NCBI GenBank assembly: GCA_041649155.1
Contig: JBAZNP010000001.1
Coordinates: forward strand, 67,581 to 131,580
DNA length: 64,000 bases
DNA from: Patescibacteria group bacterium
GTDB lineage: Bacteria > Patescibacteriota > UBA1384 > XYA2-FULL-43-10 > 1-14-0-10-43-13
Direction: 5' to 3'
The notes under the pieces are model-generated. The model searched no databases and had not been told where the DNA came from. It was given only the letters and a program-made list of their open reading frames with translations. The position numbers and the translations under genes were made by a program. Shown in pieces: positions 1,813 to 39,082 of the stretch; position 1 is the stretch's first letter; every line of letters begins with the position of its first letter.

Positions 1813-1824
1813 AATCCTCCTTTT

Positions 1825-3802: not shown

Positions 3803-3823
3803 TTCATCTCCTTCTATTAAGCC

Positions 3824-7230: not shown

Positions 7231-7305
7231 GGCCTCATCGTCTAGTGGTTAGGACACCACGCTTTCAATGTGGTAACAGGGGTTCGATTCCCCTTGAGGC
7301 TACCA
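7231..7305 (+). tRNA. tRNA-Glu (anticodon TTC)
   Basis: Cloverleaf by hand: anticodon stem CCACG/UGUGG, loop CUUUCAA, T-loop TTCGATT, CCA encoded. Confidence 0.8.
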
Positions 7306-7313
7306 TGAAAAGT

Positions 7314-7338
7314 GCATCACGCAAGTGGTGCTTTTTTC
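7314..7338 (+). terminator. Rho-independent terminator after the tRNA-Lys/tRNA-Glu pair
   Basis: gcatca-cgcaag-tggtgc hairpin followed by TTTTTT. Confidence 0.5.
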
Positions 7339-7537
7339 ATGGTGATTTTCAGGAATCGAAGATTCCCCCTTGCTTGCCGTCCGAAGCTTTAGCGAAGGAT
7401 GGAGTATTTTTTTGTTATTGCTGATTTTGACAACAAAACACAAAAAATGTCCTGTAAAATTTACATTCTGGACATTAAGTTTAAAGCTCATTCATGCAAT
7501 GATTTATTCGCATATTAATTAAACCAAGGAAAAGAAA

Positions 7538-7804
7538 ATGGGATGGATTATAACAATAATTGTCGGCGGCATCATCGGCTGGATAGCTAGCCTGATTGCA
7601 GGTACAGATTACGAACAGGGATTATTTTTAAATATCCTGATCGGTATTATCGGCTCCCTTCTCGGTAAATGGATATTCTCCGATATCCTAAAGATCGGCG
7701 GGGCCTCTGCGGCAGGCACATTTAGCATCTGGGGAATAATCTGGGGAATAATCGGGGCTGTCATCTTAATCGCCATCTTAAAATTATTCCACGTGCTCAA
7801 GTAA
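7538..7804 (+). CDS. GlsB/YeaQ/YmgE family stress-response membrane protein
   Basis: [20 protein letters not shown]… is the characteristic N-terminus of this family. 88 aa with 3 TM segments. Confidence 0.85.
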
Positions 7805-7809
7805 AGGAT

Positions 7810-7989
7810 GTGATTAAGTTGATAAAAATTAACAGGCGCGGATTTGCCTCAATGAGCGAAGAAAAACGAAAAGAAATTGCAAAAAAAGGCGGAATTGCCT
7901 CTCATCAGAAAGGCACCGCTCATGAATTTACCTCGGCAGAAGCAAAACGCGCAGGCAAAAAAGGCGGAAAGTCAAAAAAGAATATTTAA
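7810..7989 (+). CDS. KGG-repeat stress-induced protein (YciG/Con-10-like). It is absent from the ORF track, which has a 60-aa cut-off.
   Basis: GTG start 5 nt after an AAAGGA RBS. It encodes …SEEKRKEIAKKGGIASHQKG…AKRAGKKGGKSKK, a tandem KGG motif. Confidence 0.55.
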   Translation: MIKLIKINRRGFASMSEEKRKEIAKKGGIASHQKGTAHEFTSAEAKRAGKKGGKSKKNI

Positions 7990-7994
7990 ATAAC

Positions 7995-8399
7995 TTATCG
8001 ATTATTTGTGACATATTTAAACCAGTTTTTGTTGAGCCATTTTTTTTCTTTTTTTAGTAAATCCAAGAGACCCCTTTGAATAAGTTCCTTGTCTACTGTT
8101 CCTCCTTTGTGAGGGAATCTCGAGAGCTGAGGAAGAGGAGAAGAAAATCCATGAGCGTAATGGCATAGTTCATGAACTATTGTTGCATCAAGAATATAGC
8201 GGGGTATTTTTTTGTCTTTAAAATAGCCATTTAGGGTAATGACTGTATCTGTTTCATCAATTTTCTGTCTGATACTCCCCAGTCTTTTTACTGCTTTTCT
8301 ACCAAACTTAATATGAACTTTGTTTGATTTCAAAACATCAGTAAAATATTTCCTCCACAAAAAATCCAAGCGATCACTTAAAAAAGTGTCATCTCTCAT
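7995..8399 (-). CDS. SprT-like / DUF45-type zinc metallopeptidase-like protein
   Basis: A HELCHYAHG (HExxH) motif followed by a short C-terminal region; 134 aa. Confidence 0.5.
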   Translation of the reverse strand: MRDDTFLSDRLDFLWRKYFTDVLKSNKVHIKFGRKAVKRLGSIRQKIDETDTVITLNGYFKDKKIPRYILDATIVHELCHYAHGFSSPLPQLSRFPHKGGTVDKELIQRGLLDLLKKEKKWLNKNWFKYVTNNR

Positions 8400-8670
8400 C
8401 TATTTAGAACTCCTTTTTGTAATTAGGCATAAAAAATCGGTCTCAATATTTAATCCGATCATGATTACTTATAACATGCCGCGCGCGCTCAACCAAGCTC
8501 ATCATCTAGAGATAAAGATATTGTCAATTTTGTAATAGATATATTTAAAAAAAATAATTGTTGAGATTAAAGTGCTCAAAACTTATCTTGGCACATTTTC
8601 CAATGAACAAATCAGGCTGATCGGTTATTGTAAGTAATTGTTTTAACAATATTAAATAAAGGAATTAAAA

Positions 8671-9057
8671 ATGGGTTGGATTGTAACCATAATCGTCGGG
8701 GGAATAATTGGCTGGATTGCTAGTTTAATAATGAGAACAAAACAGGGAGTGATCGCCGATATTATAATCGGGATATTAGGATCCATCCTTGGTGTCTGGC
8801 TGTTCGCCGAGGTATTTGGGTTTGGACCAGTAATAGCCACGCCTGGAACGTTATCTCTTTTAAACGTAATCTGGGGTATAATTGGCGCTATAATTGTAAT
8901 TGCCTTAATCGAAGCTGTTTCATATGAAACAAGAGGTATGAAAAGGTATGAAAATGACAAAGATCAATATTCCAAAGGCGTCGCCCACGAATACGAAGAA
9001 GACAAAGGTGAAGAAGTTATAATAGTTAAGAAAAAACGTCCTACAAAGAGAAAATAA
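8671..9057 (+). CDS. GlsB/YeaQ/YmgE family membrane protein (paralog with a charged C-terminal extension)
   Basis: [20 protein letters not shown]… is nearly identical at the N-terminus to 7538..7804. It has an extra ~40-aa acidic/basic tail. Confidence 0.8.
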   Translation: MGWIVTIIVGGIIGWIASLIMRTKQGVIADIIIGILGSILGVWLFAEVFGFGPVIATPGTLSLLNVIWGIIGAIIVIALIEAVSYETRGMKRYENDKDQYSKGVAHEYEEDKGEEVIIVKKKRPTKRK

Positions 9058-9131
9058 TATCCTGTAATCCCGCCTGTCATACTGAGCCCCGAAATAGACC
9101 CTTTTGGGTTGAATAATTTGATTTTTGGCAT

Positions 9132-9162
9132 AAAAAAATCCCGCTTTTAGCGGGGTGTTTTT
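9132..9162 (+). terminator. Rho-independent terminator (cccgc-tttta-gcggg followed by a T-tract)
   Basis: Hairpin plus TTTTTT downstream of the second GlsB paralog. Confidence 0.5.
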
Positions 9163-9311
9163 TAAATACCCCCTTTTCAGCGTTACTCATATTGTGCTGT
9201 GTATTATAATGGATTTGTGGTTATTTTGATCATGACTTAATTTAAATGAAAGTGTTTAGCTGATTTACTTTTAGGCTAATTTATGTTAAAGTTTACTAGT
9301 GAAAATAATAT

Positions 9312-9387
9312 GGCGGCCATGGTGAAGTGGTTATCACGCTAGTTTGTGGCACTGGAGTCATGGGTTCAATTCCCGTTGGCCGCCCCA
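9312..9387 (+). tRNA. tRNA-His (anticodon GTG) with an encoded G-1
   Basis: An extra 5' G pairs with discriminator C73. Anticodon loop UUGUGGC, T-loop TTCAATT. Confidence 0.8.
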
Positions 9388-9436
9388 TTAAATTGATCAT
9401 TTTGAACTACTGGTGTTATAATGAGCATATAACATA

Positions 9437-10123
9437 ATGGGGGTTCAAATGAAGTTAAGGTTAGAAGAAAAGAGAGAGGCCATTAAATTACGTCGAGATG
9501 GCTACTCTTACAATGAAATTCGTCAGATTATTCCTGATTTATCTAAGGGAACCCTGTCTGGGTGGCTAAAGAATATCGAATTAAATTCTGTTCAAAAAGC
9601 AAGAATTATATCAAAAATAAATTCAGGAGCCGCAAAAGGTCGCATCAAAGGCGCTTGGACAAATAAAAACAAGGCCATTGATAGAATAAAAAGAATTAAA
9701 TTGGCTGCAGCAAAAGAATTTGATGGACACGCCCTAAACCCAATCTTTAGTATCTTTTTAAGTCTTTATTGGGCTGAAGGAGCAAAAAAATCACGCTGTT
9801 TTCAGTTTGTTAATTCTGACCCTGAGATGGTAAAAATAGTTTTGAAATGTTTAAGAACACTGTTTAATATACCTGAAGAAGAAATTAAAATAAGAATTTT
9901 CATTCATGAAGTATATTCAAATGAGAATTGTGAAGAATTTTGGTCAAAAATAACCAATATTCCAATCAGCTCCTTTAAGAAAACTGTTTACAAGCCGACA
10001 ATACATAACATTAAAAAAAATATTGATTACAAGGGATGCTGTCGGTTGGAATTAAAGGGAAGTGAATTTTACTGGAAAGTTCAAAAGTGGATTGATATGA
10101 TGATTTTGAAATGTAATAATTAG
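9437..10123 (+). CDS. hypothetical protein with an N-terminal HTH and a possible LAGLIDADG-like motif (FLSLYWAEG), embedded in a tRNA cluster
   Basis: 228-aa ORF. The N-terminus …RRDGYSYNEIRQII…GTLSGWLK resembles an HTH. The stop codon overlaps the first base of the downstream tRNA-Arg. Confidence 0.45.
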   Translation: MGVQMKLRLEEKREAIKLRRDGYSYNEIRQIIPDLSKGTLSGWLKNIELNSVQKARIISKINSGAAKGRIKGAWTNKNKAIDRIKRIKLAAAKEFDGHALNPIFSIFLSLYWAEGAKKSRCFQFVNSDPEMVKIVLKCLRTLFNIPEEEIKIRIFIHEVYSNENCEEFWSKITNIPISSFKKTVYKPTIHNIKKNIDYKGCCRLELKGSEFYWKVQKWIDMMILKCNN

Positions 10124-10201
10124 CCCCCGTAGCTCAATTGGATAGAGCGCTTGTCTTCGGAACAAGAGGTTTTACAGGTTCAAATCCTGTCGGGGGTACC
10201 A
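10123..10201 (+). tRNA. tRNA-Arg (anticodon TCG). It has an unusually long (79-nt) class I fold with a 7-nt variable region.
   Basis: Acceptor GCCCCCG/CGGGGGU, anticodon stem CUUGU/ACAAG, loop CUUCGGA, T-loop TTCAAAT, CCA encoded. Confidence 0.7.
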
Positions 10202-10214
10202 AATAATATTATAT

Positions 10215-10290
<76 letters not shown>

Positions 10291-10748
10291 AGTGAGCCGC
10301 TAATGTTTTCAAAGCTCGATATTTGGCTGTAGAACTGACTAATTTGTGGGTTGGAATAGCCATTTTCGCCCCATATGAGTCCAGAGGGGAATATCGAACA
10401 CAAGAGCGTGCGCTTCTCTTGTAACTCGGAATCTTTGTATGTTTGCAAAAGATTGCCGAGCTTATTTTTTATAAAGACGGTTATATCCGCCAAATTATAT
10501 ATGAGGTAGACCAGAAACTCTTTCGCAATTTGTTCAAAGCGAAGTTAAAAATTGAGTATTTCGTTCAAAGTTGGTGATTGTGTCGGCGATAAATGCACAA
10601 TATTCCATTTCTCCCCGCCATTGCTTTCTAGTTTAGGTCTATCATAAAAAGTCATACTATGCAAAGCGCAGCATTAATAGTATTGAATGGTTCCTCAGAT
10701 CTTTATTTTTTTAGTACTGAAAGCCAAGATTAAATAGAACGCAAACAA

Positions 10749-12958: not shown

Positions 12959-13651
12959 TTAAGCAGTCGGCCCTTGATTTGCTAGTGCTAAGCTAGCGCC
13001 CCAAGTGGGGTTGAGTTGTTCGATCAATACACTGAAGCCACAGGATCCAGGATCTCCGCCTCCTTCCACATAATTCCGGAAGATAACCGAAGGTTCAATA
13101 ACTTTGAAGCCGTAGTTTCCCAAAACTCTGAGTTCAGGGTCAAGCGGCCTTCCATTGCGCTGACTATTTACATATTTTTCGGGACTCATCTTGTCCTGAA
13201 AACGATGATAGCCAGGCATTCGGGTTATAAACCTGCATCCGCGCTTCCTCTCTGCTACTGCGTAGCCGAATAGGTAGCTGATCAGGCACTCGGTCATGCC
13301 GGCTCGACAACCTTTAGATGTTACTGCGAGGCCAACTCCATGAAGCCATTCACCGTATGGGTTATGAGTCCTTGTGATGTGGCCAGAATCAGTCGCTTCG
13401 TTCCATGTGGGGCAGAGTATGAGATTGTCATTTGCAAGTTGCACGGAAACATAGCCTTCAATGTTGCCATCGATCTCACCAACAACAATTCCGCATTCAG
13501 GGAATGTTGTGATGCGATCAATAAACATCTGCTCATTTCCTTGCCAAATGCTCTTCCATGCTTGGTCACAAACTCGAATGACATCATCAACATCGGTCAC
13601 CACTGCGGGTCTTACTTTCATGTTCATTTTACACCTCTGTCTCCACCGCAT
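12959..13651 (-). CDS. GNAT-like N-acetyltransferase (weak), GC-elevated and divergent from the peptide/rSAM pair
   Basis: …HGVGLAVTSKGCRAGMTECL… resembles the GNAT motif A (R/Q-x-x-G-x-G/A). GC is clearly higher than in the flanking genes. Confidence 0.4.
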   Translation of the reverse strand: MRWRQRCKMNMKVRPAVVTDVDDVIRVCDQAWKSIWQGNEQMFIDRITTFPECGIVVGEIDGNIEGYVSVQLANDNLILCPTWNEATDSGHITRTHNPYGEWLHGVGLAVTSKGCRAGMTECLISYLFGYAVAERKRGCRFITRMPGYHRFQDKMSPEKYVNSQRNGRPLDPELRVLGNYGFKVIEPSVIFRNYVEGGGDPGSCGFSVLIEQLNPTWGASLALANQGPTA

Positions 13652-13838
13652 TGGTGGGATGTCGTTCTTAGTATCTCAAGTTGCCTAATTATGGAGGCAG
13701 CCCGAGTTACCTGGACATTACTTTGTCCAAGCTTTTCTGCTGCCATAGGCAACTCCTTTCAGTTTTCAATGTACTCTAAGCTCATTATACTATATACAAT
13801 AGCGAAGATGTGTTGTATTCTACCACAATTACTCTTAT

Positions 13839-13882
13839 TTGTCAATCGTAGTGTTGACAAAATCGTCATTTAGTGATATTAG
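13839..13882 (+). promoter_or_regulatory. Sigma70-like promoter (TTGACA, 17 bp, TGaTATTAG) overlapped by a perfect inverted repeat TTGTCAA-N8-TTGACAA. This is a candidate operator.
   Basis: Read directly. The -35 box sits inside the right arm of the palindrome, about 50 nt upstream of the peptide ORF. Confidence 0.4.
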
Positions 13883-13932
13883 TATTATAGAATTGCTGGT
13901 TGCAATTCAAAAACTGCAGTAGGAGATCTTCT

Positions 13933-14028
13933 ATGAAAAGAAAGTTCCGCATCCTTAATCGTGGTAACGCCTCAGTTGTCGTTCTGACGAAGGAATCCCA
14001 AGGCGTCATGTATTACCGGGGCCAGTAG
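13933..14028 (+). CDS. Candidate RiPP precursor peptide (31 aa, MKRKFRILNRGNASVVVLTKESQGVMYYRGQ), not in the ORF track
   Basis: ATG 6 nt after an AGGAGA RBS. It lies directly upstream of, and co-oriented with, the RRE-rSAM gene, with a terminator-like hairpin between them. Confidence 0.5.
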   Translation: MKRKFRILNRGNASVVVLTKESQGVMYYRGQ

Positions 14029-14055
14029 TCCCATGGGCGTAAGCCCAGCCAACCT

Positions 14056-14092
14056 GGCGAGGCTGATTCCGATCACGCCTCGCCATTTTTTT
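14056..14092 (+). terminator. Intrinsic terminator/attenuator hairpin (ggcgaggc…gcctcgcc followed by 7 T) between the peptide ORF and the rSAM gene
   Basis: 8-bp GC stem with a T-tract. This precursor-then-leaky-terminator layout is typical of RiPP operons. Confidence 0.55.
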
Positions 14093-14111
14093 CAGAAAGG
14101 GAGCTATTTAG

Positions 14112-15542
14112 ATGAACGTGAGCCTGTCTGAAAAGCCATCGATCGATTATCGAGGCGATTTAGCAGTGGTGATATTCCCTTCTAAACCTTACTGGTTCTC
14201 TGCAACAAAAGAAATTGCAGATATCCTCGAAGCCTTTGAATTAGAGGAGGAAGGTAAAATCACCAGCAGTATCGCAGACAGTTTACAGGTCTCTGTAGAA
14301 GAAGCAAGAGAAATCTATGCAGAGACTACGGATCTGCTTTATTCGTCCGGTGTATTATCTATAGATGGAAGGTACGCCAAGACAACAGAGTTTGCGCCAA
14401 ACTTCCAAGTCAATGATGTCGAAAACGTGCTTGTCATCGCTACTACTCAGAAATGCAATATGGAGTGTGAGATGTGCTATGCACACGCAAGAAAACCACT
14501 TCCCAATGAGATGGCAACGGGAGAAATCAAGACTATTATCGATCAACTCTCCGAAATGCCTTGGCAAAACGGTATTTCTCGCGTTGCTTTGACTGGTGGA
14601 GAGTTGTTTACCCGTCCAGATGCTATCGATCTGATTGGTTATGTCCACGAGCATGGATTCTTTGCTCAAGTGAATACCAATGCGACTTTACTTGATGACA
14701 GTCAAATCAAAAGGCTTGCCGAGTTTCCGCGACTTAAAATGTCGATTTCGCTAGATGGCTGCAGGCCCGAGACACATGACTTCATCAGAGGCGCAGGGGC
14801 ATTCGATACAACCGTCCGGAACATTCGCCTGCTATGTGAAAATGGCGTGTCGGTAGCGATCAACATGTTTGTTCATCGGGACAACATTGGAGAGATCAAG
14901 GAAACACTTCTTCTGGCTGATTCATTGGGAGTCGAAGGGTTTAATTGCCTGAATATGATGAACGTTGGGCGAGGAAATAGCAAAAAGGCAAAACGACTCC
15001 TAGTCGCAGTTCCAGTAGCAGAATTCTATCGCAAGGTTTTTGACGCCGTCCGCGAAGATCATCGGTTGCAAAAGCTGATGATGAATTCCACTTTTGCCAA
15101 TCAACTCATGGGAATTGCCGGAGGAGTTAAGAGCTTCGGTTGTGGAATAGGCACTAACCGAGCTGTCTACGTGAAAGCCGATGGCTCTATCTATCCCTGT
15201 GCCGATACTGCTTTACCGGCATTTCGCCTAGGAAACCTACGCACTGACAGTATGTCTGAAATTTGGGAGAATTCGCCGATCTTAGAGAAGCTTCGCTCTC
15301 TTAATATCGACACCATGAATCCAAAATGTTCGGCATGCGATGTTCGGTATCTCTGTGCGGGCAACTGTCGCGGAGAGAATTATCAGACAACCAAGAATAT
15401 AAAAAGTCCCCATTTCAAGTGTGACGAGATACATACCTCCATCCTCGAGTTGATGTGGATCCTTACCGAAGAGCCCGATCTCTTCAAGTGTAAAGTTGAC
15501 AACCTTTATGCAACAGTGAACTCACATGCTTCAACAGCATAA
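14112..15542 (+). CDS. Radical SAM/SPASM-domain peptide-modifying enzyme with an N-terminal PqqD-like RRE domain
   Basis: CNMECEMC (CxxxCxxC) at about residue 115. A C-terminal Cys-rich SPASM region (CGIG…YPC…CSACDVRYLCAGNC…KC). The first ~95 aa resemble the PqqD/RRE fold pattern. RBS AAAGGGAG. Confidence 0.8.
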   Translation: MNVSLSEKPSIDYRGDLAVVIFPSKPYWFSATKEIADILEAFELEEEGKITSSIADSLQVSVEEAREIYAETTDLLYSSGVLSIDGRYAKTTEFAPNFQVNDVENVLVIATTQKCNMECEMCYAHARKPLPNEMATGEIKTIIDQLSEMPWQNGISRVALTGGELFTRPDAIDLIGYVHEHGFFAQVNTNATLLDDSQIKRLAEFPRLKMSISLDGCRPETHDFIRGAGAFDTTVRNIRLLCENGVSVAINMFVHRDNIGEIKETLLLADSLGVEGFNCLNMMNVGRGNSKKAKRLLVAVPVAEFYRKVFDAVREDHRLQKLMMNSTFANQLMGIAGGVKSFGCGIGTNRAVYVKADGSIYPCADTALPAFRLGNLRTDSMSEIWENSPILEKLRSLNIDTMNPKCSACDVRYLCAGNCRGENYQTTKNIKSPHFKCDEIHTSILELMWILTEEPDLFKCKVDNLYATVNSHASTA

Positions 15543-24973: not shown

Positions 24974-25015
24974 ACTGTCATCCCGAGCCCCCTCTACTGT
25001 CATCCCGAGCGTTAG
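24974..25015. repeat. Two direct copies of CTGTCATCCCGAGC plus a hairpin, belonging to the TGTCATYCC element family
   Basis: Read directly. It sits between the GT2 start and the upstream small membrane gene. Confidence 0.45.
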
Positions 25016-25382: not shown

Positions 25383-25458
25383 TGGAGCCGATGAGAGGAT
25401 TTGAACCTCCGACCTCTTCTTTACGAAAGAATTGCTCTACCAGCTGAGCTACATCGGC
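25383..25458 (-). tRNA. tRNA-Thr (anticodon CGT)
   Basis: Reverse complement folds as GCCGAUG…loop UUCGUAA…T-loop TTCAAAT…CCA, with a 27:43 mismatch in the anticodon stem. Confidence 0.7.
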
Positions 25459-25459
25459 A

Positions 25460-25533
25460 TGGAGCGGGTAACGGGAATCGAACCCGTGACTCATCCTTGG
25501 GAAGGACGCATTTTACCACTAAACCATACCCGC
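25460..25533 (-). tRNA. tRNA-Gly (anticodon CCC)
   Basis: Reverse complement gives GCGGGUA…loop UUCCCAA…T-loop TTCGATT…CCA, 1 nt from tRNA-Thr. Confidence 0.75.
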
Positions 25534-25680
25534 AATACAAGATTCAATCTATCATTTCCAGCTCAAAAAGACAATAAAATGAGTCTGAATCCGAGCTTTT
25601 ACTATTGACTTTTCCATTGTTTTGTGATATTATATTAAACATACTGAGGGAAAGGTGGTTGATATTAAAGGAGATTAATT

Positions 25681-25857
25681 ATGATCAAACTGATAATATC
25701 AATCATTTCAGTATCACTAATGATAGACGCCAAAGTCCTGAACAGAATAATGGCGCACTCCGCGACTCCCGAGCTCGCTCCCGTTGTAGCAGGCACGTTC
25801 CTGCTCGGACTGGCCGGAGCTGTAATAAGTATTCCTTCCTTGCTTCAAAGCAGGTAA
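25681..25857 (+). CDS. hypothetical 58-aa hydrophobic peptide (alternative to the track ORFs in this region)
   Basis: ATG 7 nt after an AAGGAGA RBS. It has an AT-rich 5' part and a GC-rich 3' part. A promoter-like TTGACT-17-TATTAT lies upstream. Confidence 0.35.
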   Translation: MIKLIISIISVSLMIDAKVLNRIMAHSATPELAPVVAGTFLLGLAGAVISIPSLLQSR

Positions 25858-26159
25858 ACAGAGCACTGGTCGGTCTTGCATTTCAATGTGAGACCGACCC
25901 AACCTTGAGCCCCCATCCGCCAGTCGGTAGTTCGAGGCTTGAGCGTTGAAAAATGTTCTTCTCCTTATTAAGGAGAAGTTAGATGAGGTAAAATTATCAT
26001 TCCCAATATCTCCCGCGAGTCAAAGCTAGAAGTAAGTTATTAAACTAAGTACTCAAAGCTTATCGCTAGCTTGACTCACAGGAAATAGTTTTTCCATGAT
26101 GAGAAGCCTACTGACTAAAGTCAGAGGCGCGGCTAATACCCGCAAGAGGATAAGGGAGA

Positions 26160-26786
26160 ATGCTTCGTCTGATTAAAGTTATTGGATTAAGTTTGGGCTT
26201 CATGGTCGTTGTCTGCGGCCTTTTCGCCGTAGCGGCTCGCGCCGACACCAACGACCCAGTCGGCTGGAAAGTAGTTTTCAGCCTCAGTTGTTCCTCTGGA
26301 ACAGTTGAATTCGGGGCCAATGACGCCGGCTCTGGCTATGCAAGAGGATTTGTAGACGGTCCAGTAAGGATGGACCGTGAAGCTGGATATACCAGCATCA
26401 TCCATCTTGGGGCAAACACAATATTTCAAGAAAATCTGATAATCGAGCCCCAGGCAAACGCTCCGGACAGTTTTATCCTAAGTTGGACAACCTTCAACTG
26501 GGACAAGGATTGGTTGTATCGGCCCGGAAATATCGGTCGGTCGATTTACGGCCGACTGCCGATACCTGGAGAAGCTGAGCGATGGCTTGATCTGTCCAAA
26601 TCCGGAAGCACAACTCTTGGCAGCAGCAACCAGTGGTATCACTACGCAAATGGCGATCCGCTGCTTCAGATGCCAATTTTCGCCAATCAGGCTGTTCCCG
26701 AGCCTAGCAGCATTTTTGCCTTAGGCGGCGGATTTGGAGCTATGCTCCTTCGCCGCTATCGTTTCAGAGCTTGGTCTAGAAAATAG
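26160..26786 (+). CDS. PEP-CTERM sorting-domain protein (putative exosortase substrate)
   Basis: N-terminal signal peptide. The C-terminus reads …VPEPSSIFALGGGFGAMLLRRYRFR, i.e. PEP motif, TM segment and Arg cluster. GC is well above the window average. Confidence 0.75.
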   Translation: MLRLIKVIGLSLGFMVVVCGLFAVAARADTNDPVGWKVVFSLSCSSGTVEFGANDAGSGYARGFVDGPVRMDREAGYTSIIHLGANTIFQENLIIEPQANAPDSFILSWTTFNWDKDWLYRPGNIGRSIYGRLPIPGEAERWLDLSKSGSTTLGSSNQWYHYANGDPLLQMPIFANQAVPEPSSIFALGGGFGAMLLRRYRFRAWSRK

Positions 26787-26805
26787 GACTAAGCCAAGAT
26801 CAAAC

Positions 26806-26836
26806 GCCTACCCCGAAGGGGTGGGCGTTTTTCTTA
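26806..26836 (+). terminator. Intrinsic terminator (cgcctacccc-gaag-gggtgggcg followed by ttttt)
   Basis: GC-rich stem plus T-tract. Confidence 0.6.
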
Positions 26837-26876
26837 TTGATTTTTTGATCAATAATTGTTATAATTCATTCATTGC

Positions 26877-26953
26877 GGGGTCGTAGTTCAGTTGGTTAGA
26901 ACGCCACACTGTCACTGTGGAGGTCGCCGGTTCGAGTCCGGTCGATCCCGCCA
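26877..26953 (+). tRNA. tRNA-Asp (anticodon GTC)
   Basis: GGGGUCG acceptor, loop CUGUCAC, T-loop TTCGAGT, CCA encoded. Confidence 0.8.
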
Positions 26954-27057
26954 GTAAAAAACCGTTAGTGCATTGCAAATGTACTGGCGGTTTTTTATTG
27001 CTATTTTTGCAAATTATTGTTATACATGTAGCGAGATTAGCAAAGGGGGCATGTGAC

Positions 27058-27384
27058 ATGCTTACTGGAATTTTATACCGGCTATCGGGATTGATTTATG
27101 GCAAATACGTTTGCGTCCGTTGCGGTAAACAGTTTCCAAACAGGTTGATCAAAAAAGTGCTAAACCAATGGATTGCTGCAAAATGGCACGAAGATATGTC
27201 GACAACAGCCGGATCTGTTCATCGAGTCTGCCTCCAATGTTGCGAATTGGCCAAAAGTTGGGATGGCACAGAATCTGGATATGATCCAAAAAATGATCCG
27301 GCAGCCGGACTTGGTTTGGGTCCAATCGCATCCGATCTACTTAGAATGATCGAGGATGCTCAGGAAACTTTGAAAGGAAAGTAG
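27058..27384 (+). CDS. hypothetical zinc-ribbon protein (CxxC…CxxCC)
   Basis: In-frame ATG 9 nt after an AAGGGGG RBS. The track's 5' extension runs through tRNA-Asp and is rejected. CVRCGK…CLQCC. Confidence 0.5.
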   Translation: MLTGILYRLSGLIYGKYVCVRCGKQFPNRLIKKVLNQWIAAKWHEDMSTTAGSVHRVCLQCCELAKSWDGTESGYDPKNDPAAGLGLGPIASDLLRMIEDAQETLKGK

Positions 27385-27406
27385 TGATGACATTGAAGCG
27401 GCGAAT

Positions 27407-27440
27407 CATCAGCCAAAGACCGAACATCTGAGTTCGGTCT
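27407..27440 (+). terminator. Intrinsic terminator (aaagaccgaac-atctga-gttcggtct followed by tttttttt)
   Basis: Perfect stem plus T-tract. Confidence 0.65.
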
Positions 27441-27586
27441 TTTTTTTATTAAACATGAACTTTTGGTCGATTGGACAAAAAAGCTTAAAAAATAGTTATT
27501 TTTTTATAGAAATAGCTAATAAAATATCATCTTTATTAAGAGATGATATTTTTGCCTGCGGGCGAATATGATACTGGAGGGAAAAA

Positions 27587-28444
27587 ATGAAAAAGAGCTT
27601 GATTTTGTGTTTGATCACAGTTGTAAGCGTGGGCATATTGGCACCCACTCCAATCAGAGCAAGTGAAGAAGGACGACGCAATGTTGCTTATCTGACAGGC
27701 GTATTGCTTGGCGGAGCGATTTACACCGGTAATCCATATGCAATCGGAGCAACAGGATCCGGAACGCTTTATTCCTTGAAACGATTGGGCGATGAAATCA
27801 ATAATCGCCACCAGCGGGAGAAATATTATCAGCCACAAGCCCGTCAACCTCAGAACTGTCCATCTCCATGCCAACAGCCAGCATATTGTCCTGCACAATA
27901 TCAACAAGTAGCATGCTGTCCGACTTGCGGTCAAAGTCAGACATACTCAAATTGCGGACCAAGAGGACAAAATTGTTCTGTCAACCAGCCTCCGCAGTAT
28001 GTCTATTACCCGACCACAGCTCAATGCAATAACTACGACAGTCGTGACCCTGACGAGTTAATTCCCAATACGGCTTCAGAGTCTTCGCATCAGAATTTCT
28101 CGGTTGGATACAATGGCAACAATCCAACATTTCGCTTCAATCGCTCAGGAGGGCAACGCACAAGCTATGTCCGCAGAGGAAACAAACAAAAACAATCGCA
28201 AAAAGCGCAAAAAGTGATAGTGGTCTATGTAGATGCTAATGGTTATCCGATACAGCAAAATGCCGGTTATCAGCCGCAACCAACATATCAACGTGACCCC
28301 GATCAGTTGGTTCCTGTCAGCGCTTCAGATTCATCTCATCAGAATTTCTCGGTTGGATACAACGGTAACAATCCAACATCTTACCTCAATCGTTCAGGCG
28401 GTCAACGCATAAGTTATGCTCGCAGAGGCAACTTAAGAAATTAA
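27587..28444 (+). CDS. Secreted protein with a Cys/Gln/Pro-rich linker and two ~75-aa tandem repeats
   Basis: Signal peptide. Internal repeats …RDPDELIPNTASESSHQNFSVGYNGNNPT…RSGGQR.SY.RRGN occur twice. Confidence 0.6.
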   Translation: MKKSLILCLITVVSVGILAPTPIRASEEGRRNVAYLTGVLLGGAIYTGNPYAIGATGSGTLYSLKRLGDEINNRHQREKYYQPQARQPQNCPSPCQQPAYCPAQYQQVACCPTCGQSQTYSNCGPRGQNCSVNQPPQYVYYPTTAQCNNYDSRDPDELIPNTASESSHQNFSVGYNGNNPTFRFNRSGGQRTSYVRRGNKQKQSQKAQKVIVVYVDANGYPIQQNAGYQPQPTYQRDPDQLVPVSASDSSHQNFSVGYNGNNPTSYLNRSGGQRISYARRGNLRN

Positions 28445-28466
28445 TACGCAAACCGCCAACGAACTC

Positions 28467-28498
28467 AAATAGGCTCCGATATATCGGAGCCTATTCTT
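28467..28498 (+). terminator. Intrinsic terminator containing the palindrome GGCTCCGATATATCGGAGCC
   Basis: Hairpin read directly. The same 16-nt core also occurs at 23440. Confidence 0.5.
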
Positions 28499-28523: not shown

Positions 28524-29660
28524 TTACTTTTGTGACGAAGGCATAATCTTCCAGAAATTCATTCCCAGAATTCCCAATGAAAGTAAGAATAAGAGAACAA
28601 TTGTTACCCAACCGATTATTGGAACAAGACTAATCAAAGTAAGGGAAACCACTCCGACCAAGGCAGAAAGCCAGTCAACTTTGAGATCTTTATCCTTTTT
28701 AATTAGTTTAATAATGTAGCTTCCAGCAACCAGAGGAGACAAAAGCGTTGAAAGCAGTAATAACAATCCATAAATTAAGCAAACAATAATTGCCAGTTTT
28801 ATCCCAATTATAGTCACCATCAAGAATATGCTGGCAATCGGAACTATGATAATAGTAAGTAATCCCCAGCCAATTTTAGCCCAATAATTCTTAAACGCAC
28901 TTTCCACCACCGATTTGGCAGGCTTGGGAAACATTAACACTAGCACTAGCAGAGTTATAAATGATATCAAAATACTATAAATCACTTCTGTGGCTCGCAT
29001 TGACTTCCATACATGCTCGCCTGTGCTGATTTCTTTATAATCAACACTTCCGGTTATTGATGCGTTGGAAGATATATTTGCCTCATTTGGCGAAGAATAA
29101 GAAAGTTTGCCATTAATCTTTGCATTATCACCAATAGTTAAATCGCTCACGTTTTTTATGACAACGTCTCCGCTAATTTCGCCATTTATGGAGATTTTCT
29201 CACCGGAGGCATATACTTTGCCTTTAATGTTACCATTAATATTTACAAGGCTTCCGGCGATTATAAGATCGCCATCTATCTCGCTGTTTTTATCCAAATC
29301 AACAGAATTACCGGCAACTGTTAAATCCTGACCAATTTTTCCGCTCACAGAAACGCTTCCACCGGCTACTCTGGCATTTTTACCGATATCCCCTTTTATA
29401 TTCAACGTTCCGCCGGCAGCTAAAAGATCATCTTCGATCTTATTGTTAATAACTACTGTACTACCAGCTGCGACCAAGTCGCTTTTTATCTCTCCGTCAA
29501 CGTTAACCGTGTTGCCCGCAACATAGAGATTTTTTAAAACCTCATTCTTACCGATTACAACTGTGGCATCTGCCTCTTTTGAGCTTCTAAACTCGGCAGC
29601 AAACACCATCGTTGGTGCTAAAACTAGCAACCCAAGCAAAAGAACAAATAGCTTTTTCAT
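28524..29660 (-). CDS. Beta-helical repeat protein (bactofilin/DUF342-like repeats) with an N-terminal signal peptide and a C-terminal multi-TM domain
   Basis: Repeated …G.V.V.G.I.GDL.AAG… units over about 180 aa. The N-terminus MKKLFVLLLGLLVLAPTMVFA is a signal peptide. Four TM helices at the C-terminus. Confidence 0.5.
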   Translation of the reverse strand: MKKLFVLLLGLLVLAPTMVFAAEFRSSKEADATVVIGKNEVLKNLYVAGNTVNVDGEIKSDLVAAGSTVVINNKIEDDLLAAGGTLNIKGDIGKNARVAGGSVSVSGKIGQDLTVAGNSVDLDKNSEIDGDLIIAGSLVNINGNIKGKVYASGEKISINGEISGDVVIKNVSDLTIGDNAKINGKLSYSSPNEANISSNASITGSVDYKEISTGEHVWKSMRATEVIYSILISFITLLVLVLMFPKPAKSVVESAFKNYWAKIGWGLLTIIIVPIASIFLMVTIIGIKLAIIVCLIYGLLLLLSTLLSPLVAGSYIIKLIKKDKDLKVDWLSALVGVVSLTLISLVPIIGWVTIVLLFLLSLGILGMNFWKIMPSSQK

Positions 29661-30101: not shown

Positions 30102-30770
30102 ATGAAAATTCTACTAATAGACGATGATGAATCTATAAGAAATTTCCTAAAATCAGCCCTAGAATCCGAATGTTTTGAAGTTGATTTGGCTGAAGACGGA
30201 GAAAAAGGATCTTTTTTGAGTCGGACAAATGATTATGACGTTATCATTTGTGATTATTCTCTCCCCAAGAAAAACGGACAACAGATTTGTGAAGAAATAC
30301 GAAAAGACGAAAAAGACACTCCTATTCTAATGCTGTCGGTAGAAGGAGAATCGCAAATGAAGGCTGATTTGTTGAACATTGGAGCGGATGACTATCTCAC
30401 CAAGCCTTTTTCATTGGAAGAATTGCTGGCCAGAGTCAGGGCGCTTCTTAGAAGACCAAACCAGATTAAAAACGATATTCTTAAAATTGATGATCTAATC
30501 ATTGATACAAAAAAGCACTTGGTAAAGCGGGGTGAAAAAGAAATTTATCTAACAATGAAAGAGTTTATGCTTCTGGAATATCTAATGCGTAGTAGAGGCG
30601 CTGTCCAATCCAGAGCTATAATTCTTGAACATGTTTGGGACATGAATGCAGATTTATTTTCGAACACAATTGAAGCGCATATTTCTAATTTAAGACGCAA
30701 AATAGACACTAAAGGTAAAAATAAACTTATCCACACCATTCCAGGTCGTGGATATAAAATCGATATATAA
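30102..30770 (+). CDS. OmpR-family response regulator (REC plus winged-helix)
   Basis: ILLIDDD…D…K, then a C-terminal trans_reg_C region (…IHTIPGRGYKI). Confidence 0.9.
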   Translation: MKILLIDDDESIRNFLKSALESECFEVDLAEDGEKGSFLSRTNDYDVIICDYSLPKKNGQQICEEIRKDEKDTPILMLSVEGESQMKADLLNIGADDYLTKPFSLEELLARVRALLRRPNQIKNDILKIDDLIIDTKKHLVKRGEKEIYLTMKEFMLLEYLMRSRGAVQSRAIILEHVWDMNADLFSNTIEAHISNLRRKIDTKGKNKLIHTIPGRGYKIDI

Positions 30771-30899
30771 TTTAACAATTTCTTAATCTTTTCTTAATAT
30801 TGTTTTAAGGATAATTTAAAAAACGGGCATTTTAAACTTCATTGAATTCTAGGTCGAAGGATTCTTTCTCTATGCTCGAATAATGTTAAGGAGGGAACC

Positions 30900-31013
30900 A
30901 TGAAAGAAGTTATGGCACAAATGCTTACTGACAAAAGCATGCGGTCAAAGGAAGCTGCAAAAGAAGCTGCTGTAAAATACGCAGCAGAACCATTTACTTA
31001 CTGGGCCTACTAA
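30900..31013 (+). CDS. 37-aa peptide ORF (MKEVMAQMLTDKSMRSKEAAKEAAVKYAAEPFTYWAY) between the RR and HK genes. It is a candidate signalling-peptide precursor.
   Basis: Perfect AGGAGG RBS 6 nt upstream, an aromatic Trp-containing C-terminus, and a 12-bp stem-loop immediately downstream. Not in the ORF track. Confidence 0.5.
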   Translation: MKEVMAQMLTDKSMRSKEAAKEAAVKYAAEPFTYWAY

Positions 31014-31020
31014 TATGATA

Positions 31021-31050
31021 AGCAAACAAGGCAACTTTGCCTTGTTTGCT
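31021..31050 (+). promoter_or_regulatory. Perfect 12-bp stem-loop (agcaaacaaggc-aacttt-gccttgtttgct) between the peptide ORF and the kinase gene
   Basis: Read directly. There is no T-tract, so this is a possible attenuator or processing/stability element. Confidence 0.5.
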
Positions 31051-31063
31051 TACTAAAAAAACA

Positions 31064-32440
31064 ATGCTAAAAAATATATTTTATAGACTTATTAAACACA
31101 GACCAGAGAAAAGAGGTGACCAGGTTATATATCTTTTATTATTAATATTCTTAATAATCGCTTTTTCCTGTTTTTCCATAGTATTAGCAAGTAATTTAAT
31201 TGGCCACGGCGGTTCAGTAATACTCTCTCTTACCTTTGTTCTACTAATAATCTCTGCGATTTATGCCTTTCAAGCTGGATATATAAAAATTGTAAATTAT
31301 TTTTTCTTATTTCTAATCCTCTTTGGCTATTACAATATTGTTCATAATTCTGGTGTTGAAAATTTATTTGCCATATTGCTGATGGTCTTCTACATTATCA
31401 TCTCAGCTATAATGTTTAAAAGCAGATCATTCCTCGTCAGCATTCTGGTCCTATTTTTTATTTTCATAACTCAAAGCCGGCTAGAAATTAAGGGTTTAGT
31501 CTCTCCGGATTTAAGCTGGCGCGCTTCGACAACTACCATTTCAGACATAGCTGCAATAAGCGTCATCCTTTCACTAATCATATTTATTTCATGGTTATTT
31601 AACCGTGAAATAAATAGTTATATTCATCAGTTAGAAGAATCTCAAAAGCTGCTCAGAAAAGAAAGAGATCTTTTGGAAATAAGAGTTAAGGAGAGAACAA
31701 AACAATTACAAAAAGAACAATTAGATAGACTGTCTGAGCTGTCGAAATTTGCGGAATTTGGGAGGTTAGCACAAGGACTCTTTCATGATCTTGCTAATCC
31801 GCTGACTGCACTTTCTCTTAATTTAAATCAAATAAAGAAAAAAAAGGATTCTTCTAAGATTAAAGTATATATGCAAGAGACAAATGCAGCAGCAGAGAAT
31901 ATGAAAAAATTGATAGACTCAACTATGATTTATTCTCAAAACAAATTAATCAAAGGATCATTTTCAATTATTGAAGAATTAAAAAATGCGCAATTGATTT
32001 GTAATTATAAATCAAGACAAACAGGAGTAAGTCTACATTTCCAAGATAAAAATGATATTAAATTATTCGGCAATAGAACAAGATTTTCACAATTAATATG
32101 CAACATGGTATTGAATGCTATTGAAGCTTACGAGGAACAAAAATCAAAGATCAACGAAAGTGATGAAAAGGAAATTAGTATTAGTTTTAGTAAGACAGAC
32201 AATGATGTGACAATAATTATAAAAGATAACGCTCTCGGTATGCCGGAAAAAATTAAAGAGAATATTTTCAGACCATTTTATAGCACAAAAAAACATATGG
32301 GAAACTCTGGCATTGGTCTTTCTATGTGCAAGGACATTGTTGAGAGTGATTTTATGGGAAAAATAGAACTAAACAGCCAGCATCATAAGGGTACCGAATT
32401 TATTATTACCATACCATTGGTGGTACAGGAAAAAAATTAA
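31064..32440 (+). CDS. Sensor histidine kinase (multi-TM sensor, HisKA, HATPase_c)
   Basis: 6 TM helices, FHDLANPLT H-box, and N/G boxes (NAIEAY…GIGLSMC). The start is taken at ATG 31064; the track's TTG start at 31037 lies inside the hairpin. Confidence 0.85.
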   Translation: MLKNIFYRLIKHRPEKRGDQVIYLLLLIFLIIAFSCFSIVLASNLIGHGGSVILSLTFVLLIISAIYAFQAGYIKIVNYFFLFLILFGYYNIVHNSGVENLFAILLMVFYIIISAIMFKSRSFLVSILVLFFIFITQSRLEIKGLVSPDLSWRASTTTISDIAAISVILSLIIFISWLFNREINSYIHQLEESQKLLRKERDLLEIRVKERTKQLQKEQLDRLSELSKFAEFGRLAQGLFHDLANPLTALSLNLNQIKKKKDSSKIKVYMQETNAAAENMKKLIDSTMIYSQNKLIKGSFSIIEELKNAQLICNYKSRQTGVSLHFQDKNDIKLFGNRTRFSQLICNMVLNAIEAYEEQKSKINESDEKEISISFSKTDNDVTIIIKDNALGMPEKIKENIFRPFYSTKKHMGNSGIGLSMCKDIVESDFMGKIELNSQHHKGTEFIITIPLVVQEKN

Positions 32441-32441: not shown

Positions 32442-34376
32442 ATGTCTGATAGAGGAAATCTTGATCACGCCATTTTAAAGAGCATCAAATTCATAACAGA
32501 ACAGCAAAATCCAGACGGCTCATTTAATAGCTATTCACACAAGGAGTCTAACCCTGCAAAAACAGAGTCATTTGTGACTATTTTTTACACATCGTTGATT
32601 TTATATAGCATATCTCAAATTAAAAATTCAAAGCTTTCAAAAATAAAAGACACGGCTTGTAATTTTTTATTAAGCGAAAAAAATAAGGACGGGACTTATA
32701 ATTATTGGGCAAAGAGTTTTTCAAAATACAAAACCGAATCATGCCCAAATGATCTAGATGATACTTCGTGTGCCTTATCAGCATTGTTTGCATGCGATCA
32801 AAATTTAATAAAAGAGGACGCATTAGCCCAAATTACTCAAGTTCTAATAAACTCAGAATATGAAGAAGGTGGGCCTTATTTTACTTGGATTGTTCCTAAA
32901 AATGCCGACTCAAAATGGAAAGACATCGATCTTGCAGTCAATACAAACATTGGGCTCTTTCTTTCGATGCTTGGAATAACATTACCGAATATTGAAAAAT
33001 TAATCGAAAATGCAATAGAAAAAGAAGAATTTTCTTCAACATACTATCCCAATTATTCAACTTTGTACTTCATTTCAAGATTTTACAAGGGAAAATTAAA
33101 AGAAAAATTAATACAATTTATACAAAAGGAAAACTCCAAGCCTTTTAAAAATTCTCTGGAATGCGTTTTACTTGGAATTTCATTATTAAATTTAGAAGAA
33201 GAACAAGCCAAAGTCCAAAATAATATTGACTATCTATTAAAAAACCAGCAAAAAAATGGTTCTTTTGGTTCTCACGTATTTATCATCGAACGATCATACA
33301 AAAAAGATAAACGGCTTTCAGGATCAGAAGCCTTTACTGCAATATTGGCGATAGAACTAATGACTAAATATCAGGAACCTAAAATAGATAAAAAAAGTGT
33401 GATAAAATATGATAAATTTTCCAACTTAAAAAATTTAGTCGCCAATCATGCTAGCGAATTAATCAAAAGCAGATTTAAAGATGATTTAGCAGATCAATTT
33501 AATATTTTTCTAAAGAAAATTATTAGTTCTGATCATGATGGACAAATTATTATTCACCCATATCTATTCATAAACTCGCTTAAGAAAAGAACTTTTTTAT
33601 TTAAAGAAAATGAAAAAGTTTTACTCGACACAGCAGTTGCCGGAATGTTCGGCTGGCTCTCCTATACAATATTTGACAATAATATCGATGAAAAAAAAGA
33701 TTTAGATAAACTCCCCTTAGCGATAATTTGCAACAGAGAACTGGAAGAATTATTTTGTAAAAACAATCCCGATTTTAAACCAATTTTCCGAATGCTAATA
33801 GACAGAGTAGATTATGCTAATTTTTATGAATTTAAATATGCTCGCCTTGATAATAAGTCGAATTATTCTTTAGAGAAAATTTACCCGAATGTTGAATTTA
33901 TTGCAGAAAAATCCATTGCTCATTGCCTTGGACCATTGTCGATCATGACCAAACTCGGTTTTTCTCCTGAAAGTCAGGAGTTTAAGGATTTGTTCTCTTT
34001 CTACCAAAATTATTTAATTGCAAGACAACTAAACGACGATGCTCATGATTGGGAAGAAGACTTTACGCGAGGACAAATTAATTATGCAGGAGAAATTCTG
34101 CTAAGAGATTTTAAGAAAATAAATAACAGAAAAGCCGATATTTCAAAAGATCTTCTTGAACTGAGAAAATTATTTTGGGACAAGACTATTCTGGAAGTCT
34201 GCAACATAATTAAAAATAAAATTACAGAAGCAAAAGCAAACCTACTTTCGCTTTCTGGGATATTAGATCAAAATTATCTCAAAAACAAGCTAGACGAACT
34301 AGAAAGATCTGCGGAGAAAGCCATCAAAGAAAGACTAAAAACAAAGCAGTTTCTAAATGCTTTAGATTTAGACTAG
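32442..34376 (+). CDS. Two-domain protein. The N-terminal half has prenyltransferase/squalene-cyclase-type repeats (QQNPDGSF, KDGTYNYW). The C-terminal half is isoprenoid-synthase-like with Asp-rich motifs (IFDNNIDE … NDDAHDWEE).
   Basis: Q/K-x-x-DG-S/T-F/Y repeats are typical of alpha/alpha-barrel prenyltransferase/terpene cyclase folds. The C-terminal motifs are spaced about 120 aa apart, like the DDxxD and NSE/DTE motifs of class I isoprenoid synthases. The ATG is 1 nt after the kinase stop. Confidence 0.4.
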   Translation: MSDRGNLDHAILKSIKFITEQQNPDGSFNSYSHKESNPAKTESFVTIFYTSLILYSISQIKNSKLSKIKDTACNFLLSEKNKDGTYNYWAKSFSKYKTESCPNDLDDTSCALSALFACDQNLIKEDALAQITQVLINSEYEEGGPYFTWIVPKNADSKWKDIDLAVNTNIGLFLSMLGITLPNIEKLIENAIEKEEFSSTYYPNYSTLYFISRFYKGKLKEKLIQFIQKENSKPFKNSLECVLLGISLLNLEEEQAKVQNNIDYLLKNQQKNGSFGSHVFIIERSYKKDKRLSGSEAFTAILAIELMTKYQEPKIDKKSVIKYDKFSNLKNLVANHASELIKSRFKDDLADQFNIFLKKIISSDHDGQIIIHPYLFINSLKKRTFLFKENEKVLLDTAVAGMFGWLSYTIFDNNIDEKKDLDKLPLAIICNRELEELFCKNNPDFKPIFRMLIDRVDYANFYEFKYARLDNKSNYSLEKIYPNVEFIAEKSIAHCLGPLSIMTKLGFSPESQEFKDLFSFYQNYLIARQLNDDAHDWEEDFTRGQINYAGEILLRDFKKINNRKADISKDLLELRKLFWDKTILEVCNIIKNKITEAKANLLSLSGILDQNYLKNKLDELERSAEKAIKERLKTKQFLNALDLD

Positions 34377-38515: not shown

Positions 38516-39082
38516 TCAAATCGCCCCACCCCACGACGAAGATACAAACAGCATTAAAATGATCAATATAGCAATTATAACATATGTAGCCAGTTTGCCA
38601 GAATGCCTAGCTAAAACGGTATATGAAAAGCCGACAAACAAATAACTGACGATCGCTATTATTAAGCTTTTACTCAATGGACTTATTAGAAAATAACTTA
38701 AACCAAGAAATATCTCCAGAATGATAATGCAAAATAAAACTAAATAAATCAATCTTTTGTTGCCAAGAATACCGATCTTTTGTTCAACATAAAGGTAAAC
38801 ATATCCGAAGATCACAAGAAGACCCAACATTATAAGCCAGACTGGAAGGTTATATTGAAAAAGAAAGCCGTAAAATGCATAGGCTGAGGTAAAAGAAAGA
38901 TAGATAAGTAAGAATATTGGCGCTGTTTCCATCAACGCTAAGATTAAAGCAAAAAACCCGAACGATATTATCAATATTTTTGTTGAAGGATTTTGATTAA
39001 GCTGATAAAAAGAAATAACGCCCCACAATATAATGAGACTGAGCAGAAATTTTCGACTTATTTTATTGTACAGGAAAGCCAT
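38516..39082 (-). CDS. hypothetical polytopic membrane protein
   Basis: 188 aa, about 6 TM segments. Confidence 0.45.
   Translation of the reverse strand: MAFLYNKISRKFLLSLIILWGVISFYQLNQNPSTKILIISFGFFALILALMETAPIFLLIYLSFTSAYAFYGFLFQYNLPVWLIMLGLLVIFGYVYLYVEQKIGILGNKRLIYLVLFCIIILEIFLGLSYFLISPLSKSLIIAIVSYLFVGFSYTVLARHSGKLATYVIIAILIILMLFVSSSWGGAI

Follow-up and report, generated by a model that had tools for sequence, protein, structure and literature searches.

A candidate surface-display operon with exchangeable PEP-CTERM outer domains between tRNA genes of a Patescibacteria genome

We describe a gene module in the genome of a Patescibacteria group bacterium, located in the GC-rich stretch 25700-28450 of a 64,000-nt sequence (the window; positions 67,595-131,594 of a 603-kb ENA contig by our own placement). 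The left half of this stretch (25605-26830) comprises, in order, a promoter, a 58-residue open reading frame (ORF), a structured spacer, a gene for a secreted protein with a C-terminal PEP-CTERM sorting signal, and a terminator. We favour the view, with fair confidence, that this module is a lineage-specific two-gene operon for surface display, that its outer domains are swappable, and that it lies in a plasticity zone bracketed by tRNA genes in a Candidate Phyla Radiation (CPR) genome. The PEP-CTERM protein itself belongs to a known class, and such proteins are labelled automatically by the NCBI pipeline. What is new is the module around the gene, in a lineage presumed to have a single membrane; in the literature we found no paper connecting PEP-CTERM or exosortase with CPR/Patescibacteria.

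A two-gene module ending in a PEP-CTERM protein

The second gene of the module (26160..26786, + strand) encodes a 208-residue, secreted, all-beta protein. Its tail, encoded by 26694-26783, is tripartite and consists of VPEPSS, IFALGGGFGAMLL and RRYRFR; it is recognised by the model TIGR02595 at residues 179-199 of 208, with 23.2 bits against a cutoff of 16. At the N-terminus a signal peptide can be read from the sequence as MLRLIK, a hydrophobic stretch and ARA|D. A preliminary description of this DNA had pointed to a signal-peptide protein with a PEP-CTERM tail, and this is borne out by TIGR02595, though PF07589 was missed. Judged by its sequence, the tail appears genuine. Indeed, the NCBI pipeline automatically gave MFA4995612.1 the name 'PEP-CTERM sorting domain-containing protein' (Patescibacteria group bacterium). 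In the AlphaFold2 model, built from 17 sequences (pLDDT 77.9), an 11-strand all-beta core is predicted between an N-terminal helix (residues 2-25) and a C-terminal helix (residues 182-205); the outer domain matched no fold in the PDB (best Foldseek E 0.11, TM at most 0.25). The family is small: seven matches were returned by an indexed search, about 15 full-length relatives were present among 1.84 billion cluster representatives, and no homologue was found in 185,579 GTDB species genomes. Every complete relative that we inspected also ends in PEP-CTERM, and one sequence ends short of the tail.

The first gene of the module (25681..25857, + strand) encodes a 58-residue protein with two membrane helices and has an AAGGAG ribosome-binding site 7 nt upstream. 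It is preceded by a strong sigma-70-like promoter (25605..25633, + strand; TTGACT, 17 nt, TG-n-TATTAT) with 10/12 consensus matches and an extended -10 element, and this promoter sequence is kept beside tRNA-Gly at three related loci (L088, L094 and L096; L numbers denote our homologous contigs). The conserved core of the small protein, ILNxILAHSxTPELxPxVAGTFLLGL, lies between its two hydrophobic helices, and the family has seven members among 5.8 billion proteins. The ORF is present in L088, L089, L094, L096 and L007, the last of which holds its 3' end and the leader only and lacks the tRNA border. It is the first gene after tRNA-Gly(CCC) wherever the contig includes that border, and it always precedes a PEP-CTERM gene. 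Read by eye, the differences between the window and L088 include synonymous third-position changes and conservative ones. The 58-residue hydrophobic ORF that had been noted earlier is thus present, and its conservation marks it as a real gene. We also considered whether it might be a degenerate PEP-CTERM signal; no hidden Markov model matched, and the likeness (TPELAP, then a Gly-rich helix) is visual only. At the other end, the module is closed by a predicted intrinsic terminator (26802..26830, + strand) with a 13-bp stem containing 8 GC pairs followed by a T run; L088, L094 and L096 keep this terminator behind their last PEP-CTERM gene.

Exchange of outer domains at one locus

Two other families of outer domain occupy the same locus in relatives, namely P0007/P0006 and a family of about 300 residues found in L094 and L096, and they share with the window protein only the signal peptide and the tail. 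By sequence comparison, at least three apparently unrelated outer domains therefore alternate at this one locus. The tails of all three families pass TIGR02595 with 23-26 bits against the cutoff of 16 (23.7-26.3 for the paralogue families), and the motif VPEP[GS]S is invariant across the three families as well as in distant family members. The related strains L005 and L006 carry two PEP-CTERM tails in tandem. Furthermore, L006 and L088 carry different upstream genes, yet from the conserved spacer on, beginning with its first base, their identity is 98.9%; this pattern indicates recombination between modules. Outer domains would thus be exchanged between strains by recombination, with the small ORF and the spacer providing homology on the 5' side and the PEP-CTERM tail, the terminator and tRNA-Asp on the 3' side.

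A modular, hairpin-rich spacer

Between the two genes lies a modular spacer, or leader, of 302 nt (25858..26159, + strand) with a folding z of -8.3 (308 nt folded), whose modules we aligned across 8 copies. Directly after the stop codon of the small ORF stands a 14-bp hairpin without a U tract (25868..25899, + strand; -22.4 kcal/mol, z -6.5). This hairpin occurs in 7 differing sequences, each of which nevertheless forms a perfect stem of 10-14 bp with -18 to -25 kcal/mol. The next segment is the conserved CAACCT...GAGCGTTGAAAA with a second hairpin, after which extra hairpins are optional. There follows a near-invariant long stem-loop of about 85 nt (26008..26092, + strand), which RNAalifold folds into about 21-23 bp with a bulged A, its arms being GAGTCAAAGCTAG...CTAGCTTGACTC (inverted repeats 26019-26031 and 26066-26077). 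The nucleotide identity of this element is 85-89%, even though the proteins encoded downstream are about 50% identical or unrelated. A covariance model of it (R1) has one match in the 83 kb that we inspected (contig positions 57,951-140,985 of this genome), and elsewhere it matches solely before PEP-CTERM genes. Finally, two small hairpins (26111..26143, + strand) sit just before the ribosome-binding site, and the first of them (26111-26124) covaries between loci, pairing as CUGAC/GUCAG, CCGAC/GUCGG, AUGCC/GGCAU and AUGCUC/GAGCAU. Both inverted repeats that had previously been listed for a hairpin-rich leader (in the long stem-loop and at 26111-26124) are therefore present.

A comparison of the leader with riboswitch models had been proposed: Rfam 15 gave no match in the leader at gathering thresholds, and at E up to 10 the only match was a spurious microRNA family (E 2.8, minus strand). 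Nor was the sigma-54 motif TGGCAC-N5-TTGC found in the spacer or upstream of the small ORF when up to 3 mismatches were allowed. The sole match of this type in 25534-26160, at 25787 with 3 mismatches, lies inside the small ORF, and overall the motif is matched no more often than expected by chance.

The hairpins of the spacer most likely act on RNA, in processing, stability or translation of the second gene. In the long stem-loop, the one-sided substitutions yield G-U pairs on the + strand according to RNAalifold, and together with the covarying hairpins these changes point to the + strand as the functional one. Abundant surface-protein mRNAs, such as those of S-layer genes, can have long structured 5' leaders. 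The locus resembles them in placing several hundred untranslated, hairpin-rich nucleotides immediately ahead of the gene for a secreted surface protein; unlike them, its spacer is intergenic between two genes, modular and nearly invariant in sequence.

Alternatively, the spacer could act at the DNA level, as an attC-like site of cassette exchange or as the operator of a regulator, for which the OmpR-type response regulator encoded nearby would be a candidate. In its favour, the long stem-loop is nearly invariant in sequence as well as in structure, the recombination breakpoint coincides exactly with the point where the conserved spacer begins, TCAAC...GTTGA boxes recall by inspection the R''/R' boxes of attC, and the two strands fold about equally well (z -8.3 versus -7.8 for the minus strand). 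However, we found no integron integrase or other recombinase nearby, the G-U pairs arise only in RNA of the + strand, the hairpins abut the ribosome-binding site, and homologous recombination within any conserved stretch would yield the same breakpoint. We therefore regard action at the DNA level as unlikely and retain an RNA-level role as the preferred reading of the spacer.

The boxes belong to the second leader module (25900-25953 in the window, 459-505 in L088), which reads TCAAC...ATCATCAA-N4-TTGATGRT...GTTGA and is superficially like the AAC/GTT boxes of integron attC sites. It is to the first base of this module that the recombination breakpoint maps, and no integrase was found.

A variable interval between core tRNA genes

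The closest matches of the enolase encoded in this genome, at 73-78% identity, come from Berkelbacteria and other Patescibacteria (78% for Candidatus Berkelbacteria). CPR bacteria are generally inferred to have a single-membrane envelope, and an LCP wall-anchoring enzyme and a PrsA-like isomerase encoded 10 kb from the module are consistent with this expectation.

The module is bordered on its left by tRNA-Thr(CGT) and tRNA-Gly(CCC) (25383..25533, - strand; ARAGORN and Rfam), and tRNA-Gly(CCC) borders it in L088, L089, L094 and L096 as well. On its right stands the tRNA-Asp that the preliminary description had reported, identified by ARAGORN and Rfam as tRNA-Asp(GTC) (26877..26953, + strand). 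This gene has a promoter to itself (26837-26865) as well as a hairpin resembling a terminator (26953-26999), and it is 91-93% identical in L006, L088 and L094. In the Berkelbacteria locus L008, whose flanking genes on either side keep synteny with the window, tRNA-Gly(CCC), tRNA-Thr and tRNA-Asp lie side by side with no genes between them, the interval of 96 nt between tRNA-Thr and tRNA-Asp being empty. The three tRNA genes thus belong to the core, and what lies between and behind them is a plasticity zone. The length from tRNA-Gly(CCC) to tRNA-Asp is 1.3 kb in the window, which holds the small ORF and the PEP-CTERM gene; 1.8 kb in L096, which holds the small ORF and a PEP-CTERM gene from another family; 2.2 kb in L088, with a pilin-like gene beside these two; 4.1 kb in L094, which adds TolB-like and PaaX-like genes; and more than 10 kb in L089, with many further genes. 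Across several relatives in which the module stands at the same place, flanking proteins are 72-84% identical (the neighbouring glycosyltransferase of L094, an NCBI genome assembly, is 84% identical to that of the window) and module proteins about 50%. The shared position in diverged relatives suggests that the lineage has inherited the module, which sits within a plasticity zone, and did not gain it by one recent insertion.

A 34-nt promoter-like sequence (TTG...ATTGTTATA) is present twice, at 26830-26863 and 26991-27024, in copies that are 76% identical and flank tRNA-Asp, one standing before this gene and the other before the zinc-ribbon-like ORF described below. In L008, the variable interval before enolase contains an RVT_1 reverse transcriptase (8575-9561, - strand), and nothing comparable was seen in the window.

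Composition and origin of the GC-rich stretch

The GC content of 25700-28450 is 45.8%, compared with a mean of 36.2% (standard deviation 2.3) in other windows of equal size (z 4.2), which makes it the top value among windows of this size across the 64 kb. By tetranucleotide distance it ranks as the second most atypical block (z 3.45), behind another islet at 13-15.5 kb (z 4.96). The GC-rich islet that had been noticed by eye is therefore confirmed on both recomputed profiles, although as a single patch it stands only in part: overall GC is raised, but unevenly. The 58-residue ORF and the PEP-CTERM gene have a GC content at third codon positions (GC3) of 0.51, compared with 0.318 ± 0.04 for background genes (z 4.8), whereas it is only mildly raised, at 0.39 (z about 1.8), for the two genes of the right half (27058-27384 and 27587-28444), whose GC excess is mostly in GC2, that is, in amino-acid composition. 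At every related locus the module genes have a GC3 of 0.48-0.59 and neighbouring genes 0.30-0.35. As judged from these loci, the module would have kept its raised GC3 stably while its proteins diverged by about 50%, which speaks against one recent import still to be ameliorated to its host. The pattern is in line with either long-term maintenance or repeated exchange that draws on a GC-richer gene pool, and these two are not told apart.

The preliminary description had named a horizontally acquired patch first and had pointed to tRNA genes as common integration sites; a specific form of this reading is a recent genomic island integrated at tRNA-Asp. Atypical GC, GC3 and tetranucleotide composition speak for such an island, as do the absence of the module from the syntenic Berkelbacteria locus with its three adjacent tRNA genes and the fact that the genes after tRNA-Asp differ even in the close relative L094. 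On the other hand, no integrase or recombinase was found among the domain matches of ORFs between 25.0 and 29.7 kb, no att-type repeat or direct repeat of a tRNA 3' end was found, and the PHROG phage families gave no match. The composition is moreover uneven along the stretch, tRNA-Asp is a core gene, and the module occupies the same position in several diverged relatives, with high GC3 kept across about 50% protein divergence. Shared position and kept GC3 agree with a long stay in the lineage or with repeated exchange inside it, and not with one recent event; we consider recent integration at tRNA-Asp quite improbable. The locus does resemble tRNA-linked islands and plasticity zones in its atypical composition, its position between tRNA genes and an interval content that ranges from 96 nt to more than 10 kb among relatives; it is unlike such islands in lacking an integrase and an att duplication and in retaining a core module across the lineage.

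The other islet (12959-15542) contains a 230-residue ORF without a Pfam family and a gene resembling radical SAM/SPASM peptide maturases (14112-15542), with a GC3 of 0.46. In L089 (positions 1-10691; Logan, SRR22388223), inter-tRNA metabolic genes with a GC3 of 0.57-0.59 (AIR synthase-like, OMP decarboxylase/PRTase and aminotransferase) are intermixed with genes of GC3 0.21-0.30. From this mixture, GC-rich insertions seem to be recurrent in the lineage.

Integrity of the assembly

The atypical stretch might also have been an assembly chimera in which reads of a GC-richer organism were joined to a CPR contig, as had been suggested. Its sole support lies in sharp GC steps near tRNA genes. Such genes are frequent assembly break points, and several of the homologous contigs do terminate at tRNAs. 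Several observations contradict it. Firstly, MFA4995612-MFA4995615, which are consecutive entries on a separate contig of 798,787 bp labelled 'Patescibacteria group bacterium' at NCBI, have sequences identical to those of the PEP-CTERM protein, the zinc-ribbon-like ORF, the repeat protein and the gene that follows. Secondly, 25459-26904, a span that includes the left GC boundary, is matched at 100% identity by a Logan contig from SRR8542065. Thirdly, the DNA of the module is joined to AT-rich CPR flanks in each of L003, L088, L094 and L096, L003 being the contig of a 96% identical strain that covers 26158-27891. The GC-rich stretch is correctly assembled; a chimera is hardly credible and for practical purposes refuted.

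A sorting signal in a presumed single-membrane cell

PEP-CTERM/exosortase sorting has been defined as a trait of exopolysaccharide-making outer-membrane bacteria, and the signal has been described only there (Haft 2006, PMC1569441). In such genomes PEP-CTERM proteins are several, with a median of 8, and their genes are usually single-gene units behind large intergenic regions with a shared cis element (Haft 2006, PMC1569441). The long intergenic region with a cis element matches the window locus, whereas the distribution limited to outer-membrane bacteria does not. Like proteins of the EpsH and XrtA exosortase systems, the window protein combines a signal peptide, an outer domain of little homology and a VPEP motif, helix and Arg cluster that pass TIGR02595; its gene stands behind a long intergenic region with a conserved cis element, and glycosyltransferase genes lie near. 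It differs in its host, which belongs to the Patescibacteria/CPR with their presumed single membrane; in the conserved two-helix small protein that is always first in the module; and in a cis element that is a long hairpin-rich spacer, not the proteobacterial motif. The PrsK/PrsR/PrsT set and sigma-54 site of the proteobacterial subtype were not found at the locus either. A two-component pair does lie next to the islet (30102-32440), with a response regulator of OmpR type, not sigma-54 type; the best NCBIfam match of its kinase (31037-32440) is PrsK (TIGR02916), but this match reaches 94.6 of the 300 bits required and covers only the generic catalytic half, and we give it no weight. The tail can also be compared with LPXTG/sortase display, which shares the C-terminal order of motif, helix and basic cluster and suits the envelope type expected for CPR, with the LCP enzyme 10 kb away. 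Here, by contrast, the motif is PEP, TIGR01167 stays below its cutoff (12.9 versus 15.9, in one paralogue), and no sortase was seen.

We searched for the sorting enzyme with the exosortase models PF09721, TIGR02602 and TIGR04178. As had been stated for the window, no exosortase is apparent there: none was found among the scanned multi-helix membrane ORFs or in the Pfam tables. One 188-residue, six-helix membrane protein (38516-39082) was considered as a hidden exosortase and rejected, since it has no family match and is conserved in L008, whose syntenic locus lacks the module.

Several observations weigh against a surface-display operon. Neither an exosortase nor an archaeosortase was found in the 83 kb (Pfam tables of called genes, and scans of multi-helix membrane ORFs in the window), and a crude pattern scan of the same span returned one PEP-CTERM tail. 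PEP-CTERM has been described only together with an outer membrane, which Patescibacteria are thought to lack. The Pfam model PF07589 scores the tail at 18.7 bits, just under its cutoff of 20.7, and the lack of a fold match makes adhesion a guess as the task of the outer domain. As for the spacer, its minus strand folds almost as well as its plus strand, the long stem-loop varies so little that covariation cannot prove action at the RNA level, and in L089 the small ORF is followed directly by the PEP-CTERM gene, from which it appears that the long spacer is dispensable.

On a rival reading the tail is an orphan, that is, a plain C-terminal membrane anchor in a single-membrane cell with no dedicated sorting enzyme. 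The exosortase missing from the 83 kb, the single tail per locus examined, the reduced genome and the rule that links PEP-CTERM with an outer membrane are all in keeping with this idea. However, VPEP[GS]S, and not the helix alone, stays invariant over three outer-domain families that are unrelated to one another, and for a plain anchor the motif would be superfluous; the span without an exosortase also leaves more than 85% of the genome outside. An orphan tail is possible, though we are inclined to doubt it.

On our preferred reading as a surface-display operon, the PEP-CTERM protein would be exported by the Sec route by means of its signal peptide, and its C-terminal helix and Arg cluster would hold it in the cytoplasmic membrane, so that the VPEP motif would come to lie on the outer side of that membrane. 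The signal peptide and the tail suggest export and retention in the membrane as well as display. A putative enzyme of exosortase type would then recognise VPEP and either cleave the outer domain or transfer it onto the cell surface. We infer such processing because proteins with unrelated outer domains strictly conserve VPEP[GS]S. The small two-helix protein, always first in the module, may be a partner in this process. Going further, and tentatively, we propose that PEP-CTERM-type sorting may work in a single-membrane CPR bacterium, with an obligatory two-helix partner of 58-68 residues, a new leader stem-loop of about 85 nt and a cassette locus that swaps surface domains between strains and possibly varies attachment to host cells.

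Should a single-membrane cell turn out to process the signal, the PEP-CTERM system would have a wider range than is known so far, and we would gain a handle on how ultra-small episymbionts decorate their surface. A fixed locus, swappable domains, a small membrane protein and a leader hairpin are concrete and testable features, which could help to find CPR surface proteins. If the tail is instead a plain anchor, the locus would be an ordinary variable surface-protein locus.

Right half of the stretch and neighbouring genes

To the right of tRNA-Asp are two genes that the preliminary description had also listed. The first, its CxxC…CxxCC ORF, is present at 27058..27384 (+ strand) and encodes a 108-residue, zinc-ribbon-like protein with four cysteines (C19xxC22, C57xxCC61); it belongs to no family, having no Pfam, NCBIfam, PHROG or PDB match. 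The second (27587..28444, + strand) encodes a 285-residue secreted protein rich in Gln, Pro and Cys, which has no family, phage (PHROG) or PDB match and whose cluster has one member. It had been described as having two tandem repeats of about 75 residues. An internal duplication does exist (28043-28196 and 28292-28445), but its copies have a core of 154 nt (51 residues) with 78% nucleotide identity, spaced by 249 nt and thus with a period of 83 residues. A diversity-generating retroelement acting on this protein was considered and dismissed, as by inspection the copies differ by all kinds of substitution and not at adenines alone. Apart from the NCBI entry, both genes were found in the 96% identical strain L003 only, and in L094 an unrelated gene follows tRNA-Asp. 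By this distribution they appear to be strain-specific genes, unrelated to the module, in the same plasticity zone.

At the right edge of the stretch, a perfect palindrome of 14+14 nt (28468..28495, a repeat pair) lies between convergent genes and looks like a two-way terminator. Beyond it, 28524-29660 (- strand) encodes a DUF8173 'polymer-forming cytoskeletal' (bactofilin-like) protein with a signal peptide, six C-terminal membrane helices and normal composition. Directly after the two-component pair, 32442-34376 encodes a 644-residue alpha-alpha-toroid protein with weak matches to TED, squalene-hopene cyclase and prenyltransferase. On the left side, a perfect 15-nt direct repeat, ACTGTCATCCCGAGC, occurs in two copies 22 nt apart (24974-25010), between the gene of a membrane glycosyltransferase and that of a 110-residue membrane protein.

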